From a bacterium (lineage in GTDB: Bacteria > Patescibacteriota > Patescibacteriia > JAACEG01 > JAGUWE01), in contig JAZDOD010000011.1 in NCBI GenBank assembly GCA_043798995.1, positions 4,737 to 68,736 of the forward strand: a DNA stretch of 64,000 bases. The letters run 5' to 3'. This document shows, in pieces, positions 14,030 to 58,795 of the stretch (position 1 is its first letter; every line of letters starts with the position of its first letter). Below the pieces are notes generated by a model. It did no database searches and had not been told where the DNA came from. It worked only from the letters and a program-made list of their open reading frames with translations. The position numbers and the translations under genes are program-made.

Positions 14030-15058
14030 ATGTCAACTCTTTCACTTAAACCACCAAAAATTATCGCTGTTTTAGGAACAACCGCTTCGGGCAAAACCAA
14101 GCTGGCAGTTAGATTAGCTTATCTGTTTAATGGTGAGATTGTCTCAGCTGACAGCCGACAGGTTTATCAAGGTATGGATATCGGGACAGGGAAAGATCTT
14201 GACGATTATATCATCAAAGTCAAAAGTCCCATGCCTACCGGCCCGCTTCGCCGTAGCTTCAGCGAGGCGAGCAGGCAGGAAAAGTCAAAAGTCAAAATTT
14301 TTGAAATTCCATATTATTTAATTGATGTGGTAAGCCCCAAAAAGCAGTTTAATCTGGCGGATTATCAACGTTTGGCTTATCAGGCAATTGATAAAATTTT
14401 AAAAAAAGGCAAACTGCCAATCTTAGCCGGCGGCAGCGGACTCTACCTTCAGGCCGCGGTTGATGGCTGGCTTTTATCAAAAGCAAGACCAGACAGAAAA
14501 TTACGCCAAGAATTAGAAAAGAAGAAAACGAGCTGGCTTTTTTCTTTTTTAAAGAAACTGGATAAAGATTTTGCTAAAAAAGTCAGTCAAAGTGATCAAA
14601 AAAATAAAAGGCGACTGATTAGATATATTGAAATAAAATTAGTCGAGACAAAGAGATTGCCACACTCCTTTCAATCGCTCGCAATGACAGGAGGTGGATA
14701 TGATACCTTACTTCTCGGCCTTACTTATCCCAAAGAAACTTTAAACCAAAGAATTGATAAAAGACTGGAGGAGCGGCTTGAACAAGGTCTGATTGAAGAA
14801 GTTAAAAGATTGCGTCAACAAGGTTTAAACTGGCAGCGTTTAGAGCAATTCGGCCTGGAGTATAAATTTGTGGCTTATTATCTGCAGGGCAAATTAGATT
14901 ATGAAGAAATGGCAGAAAAATTAAAAACAGCAATTCAGCAATTTGCTAAAAGGCAACTTACTTGGTTTCGGCGCTGGCAGAAAATGGGGGCTAAAATTCA
15001 TTGGATAAAAAGTGAAAATGAGGCCAAAAAATTGATTAAAAAATTTTTAAAAAGATAA
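14030..15058 (+). CDS. miaA: tRNA dimethylallyltransferase
   Basis: P-loop GTTASGKT, SADSRQVYQGMDIGT, LAGGSGLY; ~25 extra residues from repeat at 14226-14285. Confidence 0.9.
   Translation: MSTLSLKPPKIIAVLGTTASGKTKLAVRLAYLFNGEIVSADSRQVYQGMDIGTGKDLDDYIIKVKSPMPTGPLRRSFSEASRQEKSKVKIFEIPYYLIDVVSPKKQFNLADYQRLAYQAIDKILKKGKLPILAGGSGLYLQAAVDGWLLSKARPDRKLRQELEKKKTSWLFSFLKKLDKDFAKKVSQSDQKNKRRLIRYIEIKLVETKRLPHSFQSLAMTGGGYDTLLLGLTYPKETLNQRIDKRLEERLEQGLIEEVKRLRQQGLNWQRLEQFGLEYKFVAYYLQGKLDYEEMAEKLKTAIQQFAKRQLTWFRRWQKMGAKIHWIKSENEAKKLIKKFLKR
14226..14285. repeat. Palindromic repeat (family E) inserted in frame in miaA
   Basis: GGCCCGCTTCGCCGTAGCTTCAGCGAGGCGAGCAGGCAGG is the reverse complement of the repeat at 39950-40010; flanked by AAAGTCAAAAGTC direct repeats. 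Confidence 0.5.
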
Positions 15059-15252: not shown

Positions 15253-16233
15253 TTAATAACCGACGAGAATCATTTTAAGGAGAGCTGCACGGATAAACAA
15301 GCCATTTTGAGCTTGAATAAAATAAAAAGCTCTTCCATCCCGGTCAACTATAGTTGGCAATTCTCCATCTTTCGGATCACGCGGTAAAGGGTGCATAATA
15401 ATGGCATCTCGGGGAAGTTTTGCTAAGACCACATTACTGATGGAACATTTTTCTCTGATTTCTTCGTAAAAGAAAACTTTGTCGCCTAAACTTTCTTTCT
15501 GAATTCGAGTTTGATAAATAACATTGACTTTATTAGCAATTTCTCTTAGATCATCATTTTCAAAAAATTTAATGCCATGTCGTCTTAGATAGTCTTTGAT
15601 ATCTTTGCCTATTTCTAAGGTTGGCGGTGAGACAAAGTAAACGGTTATACCTTTGTATTTTCCTAAAAGGTAAGCTAATGACCTGATGGTTCGGCCCTTA
15701 GCTAAATCTCCAACCATAGCTATGGAAAGACCATCAATTTTTTTGAATCTTTTCCAAATGGTGTAGAGATCTAACAAAGCCTGAGTTGGGTGTTGACCCG
15801 TGCCGTCACCGGCATTGATAATTGGAACCCCTGATATGGTCGCTGCTCTTTTAGCCGCTCCGGTTTCAAAATGTCTCAAGACAATTACATCCGGAAAATA
15901 CAAATTTAAAACCCTGATTGTGTCTTCTAACGTTTCTCCTTTGGCCGCCGAAGAAAACTCGCTGGCGTTTTCTGTAGAAAAAATTACCTTGCCACCTAAA
16001 GTTCTCATAGCGATTTCAAAAGAAGCACGGGTACGAGTACTTGGCTGATAAAAGAAAGAAACCATCTTTTTACCCTTTAAGTAAGTTCTCATTTTTTCTT
16101 TTTCCACTCGAGAAAGTTTGTTTAGTCTTTCACTGACCAGTAACTCTTCGATTTCTTCAGCTAAACAGAAAAGATCAGCTAAAAATTCCAAATCAAACTG
16201 CTGTGTTTCTAAAATATGGTGTAATTTTTTCAT
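15253..16233 (-). CDS. pyrB: Aspartate carbamoyltransferase catalytic subunit
   Basis: STRTRASFE, HPTQALLD and C-terminal HPLPR motifs; 326 aa; SD AAAGGAGGAGGG. Confidence 0.85.
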   Translation of the reverse strand: MKKLHHILETQQFDLEFLADLFCLAEEIEELLVSERLNKLSRVEKEKMRTYLKGKKMVSFFYQPSTRTRASFEIAMRTLGGKVIFSTENASEFSSAAKGETLEDTIRVLNLYFPDVIVLRHFETGAAKRAATISGVPIINAGDGTGQHPTQALLDLYTIWKRFKKIDGLSIAMVGDLAKGRTIRSLAYLLGKYKGITVYFVSPPTLEIGKDIKDYLRRHGIKFFENDDLREIANKVNVIYQTRIQKESLGDKVFFYEEIREKCSISNVVLAKLPRDAIIMHPLPRDPKDGELPTIVDRDGRAFYFIQAQNGLFIRAALLKMILVGY

Positions 16234-21040: not shown

Positions 21041-21117
21041 GAGAAAAAAGCAGGGGATGAGCCCCTCTTTTGTGGATAAATCGTTTTCATTATATCAAAT
21101 GATTTTTGATTTGGCAA
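21041..21117 (-). promoter_or_regulatory. Minus-strand consensus promoter (TTGCCA-17-TATAAT) followed by a DnaA box and a terminator-like hairpin, upstream of the thymidylate operon
   Basis: Plus-strand ATTATA 21089-21094, TGGCAA 21112-21117; TGTGGATAA 21071-21079; hairpin AGGGGATGAGCCCCT plus T-run. Confidence 0.35.
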
Positions 21118-32073: not shown

Positions 32074-33366
32074 TTATTTTTTTTGGTATTTGAGAGATTT
32101 ATGGGCAATATCGGTTCGAAAATGTACTCCGGGCCAGGAAATTTTATAAACGGCGCTGTAAGTTTTAACAATAGCTTCCGCAATATTTTTACCCAAGCCG
32201 GTGACGCCCAGGACTCTGCCGCCGTTAGTAAGAAAAAAATTATTTGCCAGTTTTGTACCGGCATGAAAAATCATAATGTCGGGCAGTTTAAGCGCTTTTT
32301 CTATCCCCTGGATAGTCATTCCGGTTTGATATTTTTCCGGATACCCCGAAGAGGCCATTACCACGCAGACCGAGGATCTTTTGTCCCATTCAATTGGACA
32401 AGAGAGAATGTCCTGATCATGGCCCTCGGTACAAGCTAAAAGTATGGGTACAATATCGCTTTTCAGGCGAGCTAAAATTGGCTGGGTTTCGGGATCTCCT
32501 AAGCGAACATTAATCTCGAGCACATGTGGCTCGCCATCGCAGATCATCAGCCCTGCATAAAGTACGCCGCGGTAAGGAATGCCTTCCTTGCGCAAGCCAT
32601 TAACAATCGGCATGGTAATCTTTCCCAAAATTTTTTGCTGGAGTTTTTCAGTAATAAGAGGTACGGGTGAATAAGCGCCCATTCCGCCGGTATTGGAGCC
32701 TTGGTCATTGTCAAAGATCGTTTTATGATCTTGAGAGGTTGGCATGGGCAAAATATTTTTGCCGTCGCTAAAAACCATAAACGAGGCCTCCTCGCCGTCT
32801 AGAAATTGTTCAATCAGTATTCTTTTCCCGGCTTGATTCAAACTTTTTTCTATCATCAGTGTCTTAATGAAATTAAGCGCTTCTTTTTTTTCGTGGCATA
32901 CTTTAACGCCCTTGCCTCCGGCTAATCCATCGGCTTTAATGACAAAAGGAAATTCTTGCTTTTTCACAAAATTAATTGCGCGGCTTGGCTCGTGAAAGAT
33001 CGCATAAGAAGCAGTTGGTACATGGTATTTTTTCATTAATTTTTTGGCAAAGATTTTGCTTTTTTCAAGTTTAGCCGCCCTTTTTGTTGGTCCGAAAATC
33101 TTCAGTCCGATCTTGTTAAAAAAATCGACGATGCCTAAAGCCAGTGGTTTTTCTGGTCCAACTACAGTTAGGCCAATTTTTTCTTCTTTCGCAAATTTAG
33201 CCAGTTGTTTAATATCGCTTGATCCTATCGGGATTCTTATTGCTTCTTTCATGCCGTCGTTTCCCGGAGCGCAAAAAATTTCATCCACCAAGGAACTTTG
33301 CCTGATTTTCCAAACCAGGGCATGTTCTCGGCCGCCCTTGCCAATAACTAAAACCTTCATTCCCAT
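32074..33366 (-). CDS. purD: Phosphoribosylamine--glycine ligase
   Basis: MKVLVIGKGGREHALVWKI start, ATP-grasp; SD AAGGAGGT. Confidence 0.9.
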   Translation of the reverse strand: MGMKVLVIGKGGREHALVWKIRQSSLVDEIFCAPGNDGMKEAIRIPIGSSDIKQLAKFAKEEKIGLTVVGPEKPLALGIVDFFNKIGLKIFGPTKRAAKLEKSKIFAKKLMKKYHVPTASYAIFHEPSRAINFVKKQEFPFVIKADGLAGGKGVKVCHEKKEALNFIKTLMIEKSLNQAGKRILIEQFLDGEEASFMVFSDGKNILPMPTSQDHKTIFDNDQGSNTGGMGAYSPVPLITEKLQQKILGKITMPIVNGLRKEGIPYRGVLYAGLMICDGEPHVLEINVRLGDPETQPILARLKSDIVPILLACTEGHDQDILSCPIEWDKRSSVCVVMASSGYPEKYQTGMTIQGIEKALKLPDIMIFHAGTKLANNFFLTNGGRVLGVTGLGKNIAEAIVKTYSAVYKISWPGVHFRTDIAHKSLKYQKK

Positions 33367-39547: not shown

Positions 39548-39680
39548 CCCCACTTAGTGGGGTCATCCCGAGTGCAGCTCCGTCTAACGGAGCGAAGTCG
39601 AGGGATCCCGTTTAATGAAATAAGAGATCCTCGCGTCGTCCCGCCTTTGGCGGGACTCCTCAGGATGACAAGAAAGTAAT

Positions 39681-39865
39681 CCCCCCTGTGGATAACTTTT
39701 AACAAAAGGACTTGACAAGTTTTTTTTAAAATAGTAAAGTAAAGGCACAATCAACAAACACCACACTCTATATCTATCAGCCATCGACGGCACCAAAAAC
39801 CCAAACAACCAACCCAACCCCACAAACAATCAAACCAAAACACATACTTTTTTTATTGGTAAAAA
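39681..39865 (+). repeat. 185-bp repeat copy 1: DnaA box + TTGACA promoter + CA-rich unstructured segment + U7 (candidate sRNA)
   Basis: TGTGGATAA at 39687-39695; ~95% identical to 40279-40463; (CAA/AAC)n-rich stretch ending CATACTTTTTTTATTGG. Confidence 0.5.
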
Positions 39866-40045
39866 ATTTTCCTTTGTCTTTCAGGGCTTATTAAAATGTC
39901 ATACTGAACTCGTTTCAGTATCTCACAGAGAATTCAAAAAGAGATCCCAAAACCCGCCTGCTCGCCTCGCTGAAGCTTATGACGAAGCGGGCCAACGAGG
40001 CAGGCAAATTCGGGACGACAACTTAAGAATAAGGAATAATAAGCC

Positions 40046-40135
40046 ATGAAAGGCGGGGGATTTTTTCCTTTAGTGTTGGCGGTAGCGCTCAATTCCTTAA
40101 AGTATGTGTTTTCCGGATGGTTAATTAAAATTTGA
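40046..40135 (+). CDS. Possible 29-aa small membrane peptide between the two CA-rich repeats (speculative)
   Basis: MKGGGFFPLVLAVALNSLKYVFSGWLIKI with AAGGA 10 nt upstream. Confidence 0.2.
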   Translation: MKGGGFFPLVLAVALNSLKYVFSGWLIKI

Positions 40136-40223
40136 CTGTCCGGCGCTTGTGGGAAAAAAATATATATAGTGTGGTGCTATATCAAAAATGATGCGCTACT
40201 GCCAGCACTAAAGGAAGAAATAA

Positions 40224-40256
40224 AGAGCGACTAAAAAACGCTCTTTTTATTTTTTA
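40224..40256 (+). terminator. Intrinsic terminator
   Basis: Stem AGAGCG/CGCTCT followed by TTTTTATTTTTT. Confidence 0.6.
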
Positions 40257-40278
40257 AGATCAATAAATGACGAAATCT

Positions 40279-40463
40279 CCCCTTGTGGATAACTTTTAGC
40301 AAAAGGACTTGACAGGCCTTTTTTAAAATAGTAAAGTAAAGGCACAATCAACAAACACCACACTCTATATCTATCAGCCATCGACGGCACCAAAAACCCA
40401 AACAACCAACCCAACCCCACAACCCAATCAAACCAAAACACATACTTTTTTTATTGGTAAAAA
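40279..40463 (+). repeat. 185-bp repeat copy 2 (DnaA box + promoter + CA-rich segment), followed by a terminator hairpin
   Basis: TGTGGATAA at 40285-40293; downstream GAACTCC-TCATC-GGAGTTTTTTT. Confidence 0.5.
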
Positions 40464-40701
40464 CAGAACTCCTCATCGGAGTTTTTTTATTCTCCTTCGC
40501 CAGAATACCTCACCGCTTGCGGCGAGGATGAATGGCGAGGAGAACCCTTCCGAAGCTCGAAGAGCGAAGGAGGGTTGGCTTCGGAAGAATTCCGATACCG
40601 CACCGCTTGCGGTGCGGTTCTTTATTTGGCTTTGTTACTAAAAATTGTTATTATGATATTAACTTAATCGCGTTTAATTTTTATTAGTAGAGTTAATTTT
40701 T

Positions 40702-42861
40702 ATGAGCAAAAGCGAAGATCATCACCATAAAAAAGAAATTAACAATCAAGAATTTAGCTGTCCCATGCATCCAGAGGTGAGACAATCGCAAGAGGGGATT
40801 TGTCCTCTTTGCGGTATGAAGCTTGTGCCAATCAAGAAAAAAACCGAAATTGAGGAAAAAGAATCTTCTGACAAGCATGCCGGCCACGCTTTAAGGAGTT
40901 TCGCCCGAAAATTTTGGCTAAGTTTAATTTTAACCATTCCGGTTATTTTCTTTTCCGAAATCGCCTATAAACTTTTTGGCCTACCCATCTCAATTTCGCC
41001 GGGTTCGCCATATCTGCGATTCATTTTTGGTTCTATTATCTTTTTTTACGGCGGCTGGGTTTTTATTCGGGGCGCCAAAAGAGAACTCCAGGCCAAATTG
41101 CCCGGCATGATGACGCTCATTGCTTTAGCAATTTCAGTTGCTTATTCTTACAGCGTAATCGTTACTTTTATAATTTCCGGCGAGGATCTTTTTTGGGAGT
41201 TAACAACTTTGATTACGATTATGCTTTTGGGGCATTGGTTGGAAATGAGAGCTGTTCAGGGAGCTCAACGCGCCTTACAGGAGCTTTCTAAACTTTTGCC
41301 AGAAACCGCTGAAATAATTGAAGGGACCGAAACAAAAATCATTTCTTTGAAAGAACTTAAAATCGGCGATTTAGTTTTAGTCAGACCCGGAGCTAAAATT
41401 CCGGCCGATGGGCAGGTTCGCGAGGGAGAATCGGAAGTTAATGAAGCCGTCATTACCGGCGAATCAAAGCCGGTTCGCAAACTTTCCGGCAGTGAAGTTA
41501 TCGCCGGCTCAATTAATGGCGACGGAGGGCTCAAAGTTGAAATTACTAAAATTGGGGAGAACACTTTTTTAGCCGGCGTGATGCGCTTGGTGGCCGAAGC
41601 TCAGGCCTCAAAATCCCGCCTGCAAACACTCTCGGATAAAGCAGCTTTTTATTTAACCATTATTGCTGTTTTGAGCGGTGCCTTAACTTTTTTGATTTGG
41701 CTTTTGGCCAGCGCAGGATTTAATTTTGCGCTTGAACGATTGGTGGCGGTTTTAGTGATCGCTTGCCCCCATGCTTTGGGCTTAGCCATTCCTTTAGTTG
41801 CTTCCATTTCCACTGCCTTAGCGGCTCGCAGCGGCTTTTTAGTCAGAGATCGTCTCTCTTTGGAAGCCGCGCGGAATGTCAATATTGTTCTCTTTGATAA
41901 GACCGGCACCTTGACCAAGGGCGAATTTGGCGTTCAGGAAATTATAATTAATAAAGAAGCAAAACTTCCCCGGGAAAATTTTGAAATTAATGAAAATACA
42001 ATTTTACAATGGGCCGCCTCGGCCGACAATCAGGCCGAACATTTTTTAGCCCAAGCCATTGTCAAGGAGGCGCAAAAAAGAAATTTAGAACTTTGGCCGG
42101 CCCAAAATTTTCAGGCCTTAAAAGGCAGAGGAGTAATTGCCAATGTTCAAGCTCAAGAAGTTTTAGTTGGAGGCGATATTTTATTCCGCGAAAAAAATCT
42201 GATTTTTTCCGGCCAATTTAAAGAAACGGCTGAATCCTTAGCCCAACAAGGCAAAACCATTATTTATCTTATTGTAAATAATGAAATTTTAGGCGCCATC
42301 GCTTTGGTTGATCTTATTCGGGATGAATCGCGAGAAGCGATTAAAGAGCTTAAAGAGATGGAAGTGAAAGTGGCTATGATTACCGGCGATTCAGAAGAAG
42401 TAGCCGAGTGGGTGGCAAAGGAATTAGAAATAGATGAGTATTTTGCCAGAGTCCTTCCTCAAGAAAAAGCAGAAAAAGTAAAATTGCTTCAAGGGAATGG
42501 TTATCGCGTCGCGATGGTCGGCGACGGCATTAATGATGCGCCGGCTTTGGTTGGGGCCGATGTGGGCATTGCCATTGGCGCCGGCACTAACGTCGCCATT
42601 GAATCAGCCGGCATTGTTTTAGTCCGAAATGATCCGCGAGACATTGCTAAAATCATCAAACTTTCGCGTCGCACTTACCGAAAAATGATTCAAAATCTTT
42701 TCTGGGCAACCGGCTATAATATTGTAGCTTTGCCTTTGGCGGCCGGTGTTTTAGCTTCGCACGGAATTTTGCTTCAGCCGGCTTTGGCAGCTGTTTTTAT
42801 GTCGCTAAGCACGGTGATTGTGGCAATTAATGCTATGGCACTAAGAAGAGTTCAGTTATAA
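40702..42861 (+). CDS. copA: Heavy-metal (copper-type) translocating P1B-type ATPase
   Basis: His-rich N-terminus, CPMHPE...CPLCGM metal-binding, CPH in TM6, DKTGTLT, GDGINDAP. Confidence 0.9.
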   Translation: MSKSEDHHHKKEINNQEFSCPMHPEVRQSQEGICPLCGMKLVPIKKKTEIEEKESSDKHAGHALRSFARKFWLSLILTIPVIFFSEIAYKLFGLPISISPGSPYLRFIFGSIIFFYGGWVFIRGAKRELQAKLPGMMTLIALAISVAYSYSVIVTFIISGEDLFWELTTLITIMLLGHWLEMRAVQGAQRALQELSKLLPETAEIIEGTETKIISLKELKIGDLVLVRPGAKIPADGQVREGESEVNEAVITGESKPVRKLSGSEVIAGSINGDGGLKVEITKIGENTFLAGVMRLVAEAQASKSRLQTLSDKAAFYLTIIAVLSGALTFLIWLLASAGFNFALERLVAVLVIACPHALGLAIPLVASISTALAARSGFLVRDRLSLEAARNVNIVLFDKTGTLTKGEFGVQEIIINKEAKLPRENFEINENTILQWAASADNQAEHFLAQAIVKEAQKRNLELWPAQNFQALKGRGVIANVQAQEVLVGGDILFREKNLIFSGQFKETAESLAQQGKTIIYLIVNNEILGAIALVDLIRDESREAIKELKEMEVKVAMITGDSEEVAEWVAKELEIDEYFARVLPQEKAEKVKLLQGNGYRVAMVGDGINDAPALVGADVGIAIGAGTNVAIESAGIVLVRNDPRDIAKIIKLSRRTYRKMIQNLFWATGYNIVALPLAAGVLASHGILLQPALAAVFMSLSTVIVAINAMALRRVQL

Positions 42862-58525: not shown

Positions 58526-58795
58526 ATTTTGCTTTTCCCCGTTTTTTGAATAGGTGGGGGATTATCCACAAACCCTTCCCCAATTTATCAACTATTTATC
58601 AACTTTTAACCCTTGACAAAACTGGCCAAAGATTTAAGATGACAAAACCATTAAAAATAATAAAACAAAATTGTCAAGCTGAATTTGCCTGCTTGCTTGC
58701 TGCGCCAAGATTCGGGTTTCAGGATTTTTTAGTTCTGGGGTCCGTCTATCAAGGCGACTGGAAGGCAGGTGAATTCAGTTTGAGAATTTAAAAAT

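Follow-up and report, generated by a model that had tools for sequence, protein, structure and literature searches.

The LDR (ldr/rdl) direct repeats, attributed to Kawano et al. 2002, reportedly measure ~0.5–0.6 kb and give a very stable mRNA for a hydrophobic peptide of ~30–35 aa, and gene duplication is known in the CrcZ/CrcY/CrcX family of Pseudomonas. To our knowledge, the regulatory RNAs of the Candidate Phyla Radiation, or Patescibacteria, are almost unexplored. By standby, CA-repeat 5′ tails give a strong, length-dependent increase in translation where the ribosome binding site is structured (PMC5934652); the standby site of tisB is unstructured, lies ~100 nt upstream and is blocked by IstR-1 (PMC5934652). 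Here we analysed a locus in a 64-kb stretch of contig JAZDOD010000011.1 (hereafter the window), in which two direct repeats, each with a DnaA box, a promoter and a CA-rich segment, lie in the interval between mazG and the gene of a copper-type P-type ATPase. We show that what is repeated is the promoter plus 5′ arm belonging to a single conserved transcription unit. The locus is a strongly conserved gene for a structured RNA, absent from earlier annotation, in which the promoter-leader is duplicated, and it falls outside the described families.

The direct repeats were found at 39682–39840 and 40279–40437 and, with one 1-nt indel allowed, reach ~39866 and ~40463, giving units of ~185 bp (39682–39866 and 40279–40463) with a period of 597 bp. 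The two copies are ~97% identical and differ by five substitutions and the single indel. Three of the differences cluster in the spacer between the −35 and −10 hexamers, and both hexamers and the DnaA box are intact in each copy. A 31-nt core, TGTGGATAACTTTTARCAAAAGGACTTGACA, is shared by the two copies and has no third occurrence in the window, where 0 would be expected. Each copy contains the perfect DnaA box TGTGGATAA, the promoter CTTGACA-17-TAAAGT and a G-poor, CA-rich stretch of ~110 nt. In copy 1 the box occupies 39687–39695 (TGTGGATAA on the plus strand, TTATCCACA on the minus strand), about −60 to −52 from the transcription start inferred at ~39746–39748; in copy 2 the same 9-mer lies at 40284–40292. 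The promoters, at 39712–39740 and 40309–40337 on the plus strand, are of the sigma-70 type (TTGACA-17 nt-TAAAGT) and match the consensus at 10 of 12 positions. All these parts of the original prediction, the repeat pair, the perfect boxes and the promoters, were borne out, as was the unstructured nature of the CA-rich segment described below.

The CA-rich segment forms a 5′ arm at 39745–39866 in copy 1 and 40342–40463 in copy 2, both on the plus strand. Its composition is 45% A, 33–34% C and 5.7% G, and in C minus G the two stretches surpass every other segment of the 64 kb (+32 and +34 per 90 nt; standard deviation 6.4; more than 5 standard deviations). The arm is predicted to be unpaired, with a mean unpaired probability of 0.83. 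The segment had also been proposed to end in U7 as a small RNA of ~120 nt, duplicated in the two copies. The U-run, CATACTTTTTTT, is present as stated; no stem precedes it, the folds show only weak 5-bp pairing across it, and no terminator was called at 39840–39860 or 40437–40457. Because conservation and predicted structure continue unbroken for ~360 nt beyond it and the U7 lacks a hairpin, copy 1 is the 5′ arm of an RNA of ~510 nt and does not stand alone as a small RNA; a short CA-rich RNA, of ~150 nt, is possible for copy 2 only.

Conservation of the locus was assessed with relatives found by sequence pattern. Scanning GTDB genomes with box-N-CTTGACA-N-TAAAGT led to a locus (L001) in the Patescibacteria metagenome-assembled genome (MAG) DeMMO5_21, of which L077 is the JGI version. 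L001 has the module once only, and immediately after it comes the orthologue of the ~360 nt that separate the two copies in the window. Identity to L001 is 43% upstream of the DnaA box and rises to 95% over the box and promoter, so that the left edge of the conserved block is the box itself; it is 98% over the first ~60 nt of the transcript, 94% over the conserved tail of the arm that holds the U7 (AAAACACAUACUUUUUUUAUUGG), 93% in the first structured domain and 94% in the second, and drops to 44% past the base of the last stem. The CA-repeat core of the arm (39801–39835) varies in length, with 77% identity and a 9-nt deletion. The promoter hexamers are identical in copy 1, copy 2 and L001, and against L001 each of the two copies shows derived changes not shared by the other. 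In the flanking genes, four-fold degenerate sites are only 58–76% identical between the same genomes. Since the identity of the block exceeds that of these sites, 39684–40222 is, on sequence grounds, one unit under purifying selection. The decay that would have made the repeats mere intergenic filler is thus not what the relatives show, promoter and leader being conserved.

A third lineage, equidistant from the other two, is represented by a Logan assembly contig (L078) whose DUF763 protein is ~90% identical to those of the window and of L001. On this contig ccccTGTGGATAACTTTTGCCAAAAACCCT follows directly after mazG at the contig end, and the perfect DnaA box is thereby retained in both copies, L001 and L078, that is, in all three lineages. 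The contig stops exactly 30 nt (k−1, with k = 31) into the conserved module (L078, 3966–3995). Because a de Bruijn assembler stops in this way on entering a repeat, the module may be duplicated in the L078 genome also. The presence of a single copy in L001 indicates that the duplication is specific to the lineage of the window and does not define the locus. The comparison set for the RNA element thus comprises two full orthologous loci and one 30-nt fragment, and the element was found in these three related lineages only.

The long RNA, from ~39747 to ~40255, is predicted to consist of the ~110-nt arm followed by two stem domains of very high stability, with a folding energy of −157.5 kcal/mol and a z-score of −7.6; the L001 orthologue has a z-score of −8.4. 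Domain A (39867–40059, plus strand) is closed by a 22-bp stem (39871–39893/40037–40059) that is invariant in L001 and encloses three or four hairpins. Domain B (40060–40222, plus strand) is closed by a 29-bp stem formed by an inverted repeat (40060–40088/40193–40221). Compared with L001, this stem shows one compensatory change from G-C to A-U, one change from G-U to A-U and two broken pairs, and the remaining five substitutions in domain B fall at positions that are unpaired in the consensus fold, mostly in loops or bulges. Two hairpin tips vary by insertions between the window and L001, and the hairpins themselves are kept. One of these is a 41-nt GC-rich palindromic insertion at a domain-A hairpin tip (39953–39993, plus strand), missing from L001, which belongs to a dispersed repeat with another copy at 14240–14279 on the minus strand. 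This second copy (41 nt, 90% identical) lies within the ORF (open reading frame) at 14030–15058. In L001 a different palindromic insertion, TCCGCCAGTCGGCGGA, occupies another of the hairpin tips in this RNA. The AT-rich intergenic DNA of the window contains scattered REP-like elements, GC-rich and palindromic (39548–39680, 39953–39993, 40491–40620 and 14240–14279).

The ends of the RNAs point to how the second copy arose. The long RNA of the window ends at an intrinsic terminator at 40222–40255 (plus strand; 8-bp stem followed by a U-run), which, as predicted originally, lies with a 29-codon ORF between the copies. This terminator is not homologous to the one at the same place in L001 (44% identity). 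The long RNA of L001 ends with the hairpin ACTCCTCATCGGAGT and a U-run, and the same hairpin/U7 terminator follows copy 2 in the window at 40465–40492 (plus strand), beginning 2 nt beyond the arm. The latter is therefore the ancestral terminator, as it matches the end of the single long RNA of L001. The simplest history consistent with the sequences is that ~240 bp, comprising the new terminator, a short spacer and a copy of the promoter and CA arm, came to lie after the folded body and before the ancestral terminator. A discrete small RNA gene would have its own promoter and its own terminator; copy 2 has both, whereas copy 1 lacks a terminator, and the second promoter is predicted to give an RNA of ~150 nt consisting of the CA arm and the terminator. 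That both boxes and the promoter hexamers remain intact argues against a decaying duplicate.

We also considered whether either strand of the arm encodes protein. On the plus strand, an ORF of 94 codons in L001 (101 codons in L077) is broken in the window by indels that are not multiples of three, and the plus strand of the arm is accordingly non-coding. The 101-aa ‘gene’ called by JGI at L077 2926–3231, over the CA arm and domain A, is an artefact of stop-poor, CA-rich sequence. On the minus strand, a 64-aa ORF had no homologue among 5.8 billion proteins, and the minus-strand frames are broken by indels between the copies and between orthologues; they are the GT-rich complement of the arm and not genes, in agreement with the original prediction. 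The G-rich template strand contains four runs of three or more G in copy 2 (40411–40439, with loops of up to 10 nt) and in L001 (loops of at most 7 nt), a G-quadruplex-type motif; copy 1 has three such runs only.

The 29-codon ORF, MKGGGFFPLVLAVALNSLKYVFSGWLIKI, lies at 40046–40135 on the plus strand, with a weak AAGGAA 9 nt upstream. Its AUG and first codons form part of the 3′ strand of the domain A closing stem (P1), and in the predicted fold the stems bury the AUG and most of the ORF. Start, frame, length and stop are all kept in L001, with three synonymous and four non-synonymous codon changes (8 substitutions in 90 nt). The hydrophobicity of the peptide is moderate and is reduced in L001. 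Like a type I toxin gene, the locus combines an ORF of fewer than 60 aa that would encode a hydrophobic peptide with a structured mRNA and an occluded start. The Shine-Dalgarno-like motif is absent from ~30 of the 37 long ORFs in the window, whose starts follow AT-rich unstructured sequence, and a strong GGAGG is present at a few genes (15253–16233 and 32074–33366).

The arm is complementary to the body of its own RNA. A 14-nt segment of the arm, AAAACACAUACUUU (39837–39850, plus strand), is the perfect complement of 40099–40112. No complement to the arm in the 64-kb window is longer, and such a length was reached in 0 of 1500 and 2 of 1500 dinucleotide shuffles (p ~ 1e-3). The target is an internal loop of domain B with an unpaired probability of 0.70. 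In addition, a 9-mer at 39759–39767 complements the loop (40168–40176) of the hairpin 40164–40182, and a 7-mer match lies between the 14-mer and 9-mer sites, colinear and antiparallel. The net energies, including the costs of opening, come to about −9.8 and −8.9 kcal/mol. L001 retains all three sites, and the variation there is uninformative. An extended inverted-repeat homology between the arm and domain B was rejected, since it was not significant as an alignment (reached in 46 of 500 shuffles); the 14-mer alone is exceptional. RNAcofold cannot represent pairing of a loop to the arm, and the dimers that it gave are irrelevant. For targets in trans, a duplex scan of the whole window returned only a diffuse and unconvincing GT-rich stretch within pheS.

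The DnaA box of each copy belongs to a promoter arrangement that recurs elsewhere. The 64 kb contain four perfect boxes (TTATCCACA) where 0.36 would be expected, and the repeats account for two of them. All four (21071–21079, 39687–39695, 40284–40292 and 58562–58570) are intergenic; the last, on the minus strand, lies 36 nt upstream of a consensus TTGACA-17-TATAAT promoter of a gene for a 99-aa protein with a weak, below-threshold match to DUF16. The composite TGTGGATAACT-N10-16-CTTGACA-N16-18-TANNNT was found at 51 loci in IMG/VR (L015–L065), where ~1 would be expected by chance according to our own estimate. These loci are on diverse phage contigs with a GC content of 23–66%, and extra tandem or inverted boxes are frequent. 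The spacing between the box and the −35 hexamer peaks at 13–14 nt (27 of 48 distinct sites), and it is 13 nt in the window. Because this spacing recurs in phage contigs, the results support box-13/14 nt-CTTGACA as a probable DnaA-linked promoter geometry, and they suggest a general, little-noticed promoter architecture. The same box-promoter arrangement is seen in a Parcubacteria MAG (L004, 7300–7430, minus strand); downstream of it lies an untranslated segment that is G-rich, apparently structured and unmatched in Rfam, and this may be another unannotated RNA.

From these features we tentatively favour a model in which the CA arm serves as a single-stranded standby or antisense arm that controls its own RNA by a logic like that of type I toxins, with the copy-2 RNA as an antisense or competitor in trans. 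According to this model, the sigma-70 promoter with its DnaA box would drive the ~510-nt RNA, and the CA arm would provide a landing (standby) site for the 30S subunit, which otherwise would have no access to the sequestered start; the unstructured site of tisB mRNA and synthetic CA-repeat 5′ tails act in this manner. A single-stranded segment upstream of a sequestered start is what the fold predicts, the arm being unpaired at 0.83 and the AUG paired; binding of 30S is itself a prediction. In an alternative role, the arm might pair through its 14-nt and 9-nt segments with the internal loop and the hairpin loop of domain B, in cis when part of the long RNA and in trans when supplied by the copy-2 RNA. 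The latter would in that event regulate its target, as antisense or competitor, with a sequence taken from the target's leader; its 14-nt and 9-nt complementarity is shorter than in most known pairs and is also available in cis. A small hydrophobic ORF locked in structure, together with a small RNA, would amount to type I toxin-antitoxin logic, and the DnaA box would tie the transcription of both RNAs to the status of DnaA. A stricter form of the model, in which the mRNA of a toxic peptide is silenced by its own CA arm, through standby or distant pairing, and in this lineage the duplicated arm with its DnaA-controlled promoter has become a trans regulator, that is, a self-derived antitoxin, appears to us improbable.

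Several observations weigh against the favoured model. The trans RNA is not essential to the unit, because L001 works with a single copy. The ORF, with 8 substitutions in 90 nt, has diverged slightly more than the non-coding 3′ part of domain B, replacements in L001 change hydrophobic to polar residues (L9S, I27N and I29T), and the 29-aa peptide has no match in Pfam or NCBIfam. The AAGGAA upstream of the ORF means little, because most genes here have no Shine-Dalgarno sequence. The covariation consists of a single compensatory pair, as seen in two full loci and a 30-nt fragment. Furthermore, the minimum-free-energy fold of the full RNA omits the arm-body pairing, which costs ~7 kcal/mol when forced in cis; the 9-mer taken alone is within chance, and the 14-mer could be a relic of an inverted repeat.

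A rival reading is that the locus encodes a new, narrowly distributed, non-coding structured RNA, whose ~360-nt body is functional, for example as a protein partner or scaffold, while the ORF is incidental, the arm a handle or spacer that is single-stranded and under selection, and copy 2 a by-product of local duplication. Taken by itself we regard this as somewhat unlikely, and it comes nearly as likely as the favoured model. Conservation is at the RNA level, the ORF being less well conserved than the non-coding 3′ part of domain B; the folding z-scores are very strong; the AUG is buried, whereas the genes of this genome start in unstructured, AT-rich contexts; and hydrophobic residues of the peptide are polar in L001. 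Such an RNA, however, would leave unexplained the 14-nt complementarity between arm and body and would give no reason for both promoter copies staying intact, no Rfam match was obtained even at E ≤ 10, and the frame, length, start and stop of the ORF are kept in L001 despite eight substitutions. The arm might instead be a Rho-loading (rut) leader that recruits Rho for conditional attenuation downstream, with the copy-2 RNA titrating Rho or a site-masking factor. A rut site comprises at least ~70–80 nt of C-rich, G-poor, unstructured and untranslated RNA, and the arm is such a segment: it lies in the untranslated 5′ region, is the most extreme C-over-G stretch in the 64 kb, is unpaired, and combines 33–34% C and 5.7% G with 18–20 YC dimers per 122 nt. 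A constitutive rut site ahead of a conserved RNA, however, would defeat the expression of that RNA, and the best-conserved parts of the arm are its first 60 nt and its tail rather than the C-rich core of variable length. The arm-body complementarity would again have no explanation, and we consider this role unlikely.

The original prediction had likened the repeats to protein-sponge RNAs, that is, two independent CA-rich small RNAs resembling CrcZ that bind Hfq/Crc or another single-strand RNA-binding protein. Their strong conserved promoters, the unstructured CA-rich RNA and the terminator of copy 2 itself would suit such a function. The analogy failed on the motif that it calls for, since a regular-expression search of copy 1, copy 2 and L001 found neither AANAANAA nor three or more A-R-N triplets in a row. 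In addition, copy 1 has no terminator and continues into the conserved structured body, L001 has one copy only, and, the L001 orthologue excepted, no other CA-rich element of this kind was found in the rest of the 64-kb window or in 640 kb of other loci; sponge RNAs seem to us slightly less likely than a rut leader. Least probable by far is a role at the level of DNA, as a replication origin, a DnaA-titration site or functionless duplicated filler. The perfect DnaA boxes and the G-runs of the GT-rich strand, with the G-quadruplex-like motif in copy 2 and L001, could be read in this way, but there is a single box per copy and no cluster, the CA repeats lie ~55 bp from the box, too distant for a DnaA-trio, and the cumulative GC skew rises smoothly through the locus without an inflection. 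As for filler, identities of 93–98% against ~60% at neutral sites exclude it.

A leader of the downstream copper-type P-type ATPase was rejected as an explanation: two terminators lie between the arm and the ATPase gene, which has its own promoter-like site, and L001 retains the RNA though only a 3′ remnant of its ATPase is left. Compared with the window (40620–42861), the ATPase (HMBD-type, probably for copper) is deleted in L001 (3440–3540) but for the last ~25 codons. Homologous ATPases (~65% identity) have different neighbours, and the RNA element was not found upstream of them; likewise, the neighbours of DUF763 homologues (~75% identity) differ, and the element is not present there. The locus is an indel hot spot, with a nitroreductase gene and a 114-aa ORF present in L001 only.

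The closest relatives of the window are Patescibacteria MAGs; its GC content is low (~39%) and its genes are short. DUF763, MazG and the ATPase bear the consecutive accessions MFH0820100, MFH0820101 and MFH0820102, and in the public annotation the interval between mazG and the ATPase gene is empty. Rfam 15 at the gathering threshold returned only tRNAs, or nothing, for the window, L001 and L003–L005; at E ≤ 10 the locus yielded noise, which included none of the RNA families of type I toxins or antitoxins, and ARAGORN called no tmRNA. A metagenome scan with a 20-mer from the leader gave a single chance match on a GC-rich contig, four scans of IMG/VR with blocks of the leader or body gave no matches or chance matches only, and no phage or plasmid was matched by blastn. 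For MazG and the ATPase, exact look-ups returned no contig on record, and a contig of the window's lineage that carries the deacetylase (L079) stops short of the locus.

The reach of the element is narrow, three closely related lineages, and its function is one that we infer. If the arm controls the buried ORF, the locus would be a natural example of standby on a CA tail, and of a trans RNA that arose when a leader was duplicated. Were the stricter, self-derived antitoxin form true, it would offer a snapshot of a trans-acting small RNA born from a cis leader, and of a type-I-like module coupled to the status of the replication initiator in a Patescibacteria organism with a reduced genome. A strongly selected, very stable RNA gene of ~0.5 kb with an unusual G-depleted arm and a DnaA-box promoter is a concrete target for the mapping of metatranscriptomes.

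Among known systems, the locus is most readily compared with tisB/istR-1 of E. coli, which has a 29-aa hydrophobic ORF with its start region in a stable structure, a long 5′ untranslated region with an unstructured stretch ~100–200 nt before the start, a small RNA encoded nearby with the potential to pair with the mRNA, and a promoter with a site for a global regulator of DNA status, LexA in tisB and the DnaA box here (PMC5934652). The two share no similarity in sequence or in Rfam. IstR-1 is a divergent RNA, antisense to the standby site, whereas the small RNA here runs in the same direction as the mRNA and is identical to its leader, and its complementarity is to loops in the ORF and the 3′ untranslated region; moreover, the L001 relative lacks the small-RNA copy, and the peptide here is no more than a putative toxin. 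In LDR and other tandemly repeated type I loci of enterobacteria the repeat covers the entire unit; here it covers the promoter and leader, and the opposite strand carries no conserved promoter for a cis-antisense RNA. CrcZ/CrcY/CrcX are likewise A/C-rich, unstructured RNAs with dedicated promoters, but here their AANAANAA (A-R-N) motifs are missing, copy 1 is not a separate small RNA and the organism is unrelated. The arm resembles the rut leaders of mgtA and rho as a C-rich, G-poor, unstructured and untranslated 5′ segment, from which it differs in that its conserved parts are the flanks of the C-rich core. With CA-rich translational enhancers, synthetic and natural, it shares a single-stranded CA 5′ tail ahead of a sequestered start (PMC5934652). 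In those enhancers the tail adjoins the hairpin of the ribosome binding site, whereas here ~180 nt of folded RNA lie between the arm and the AUG, and the closing stem of domain A is predicted to bring the AUG stem beside the arm.

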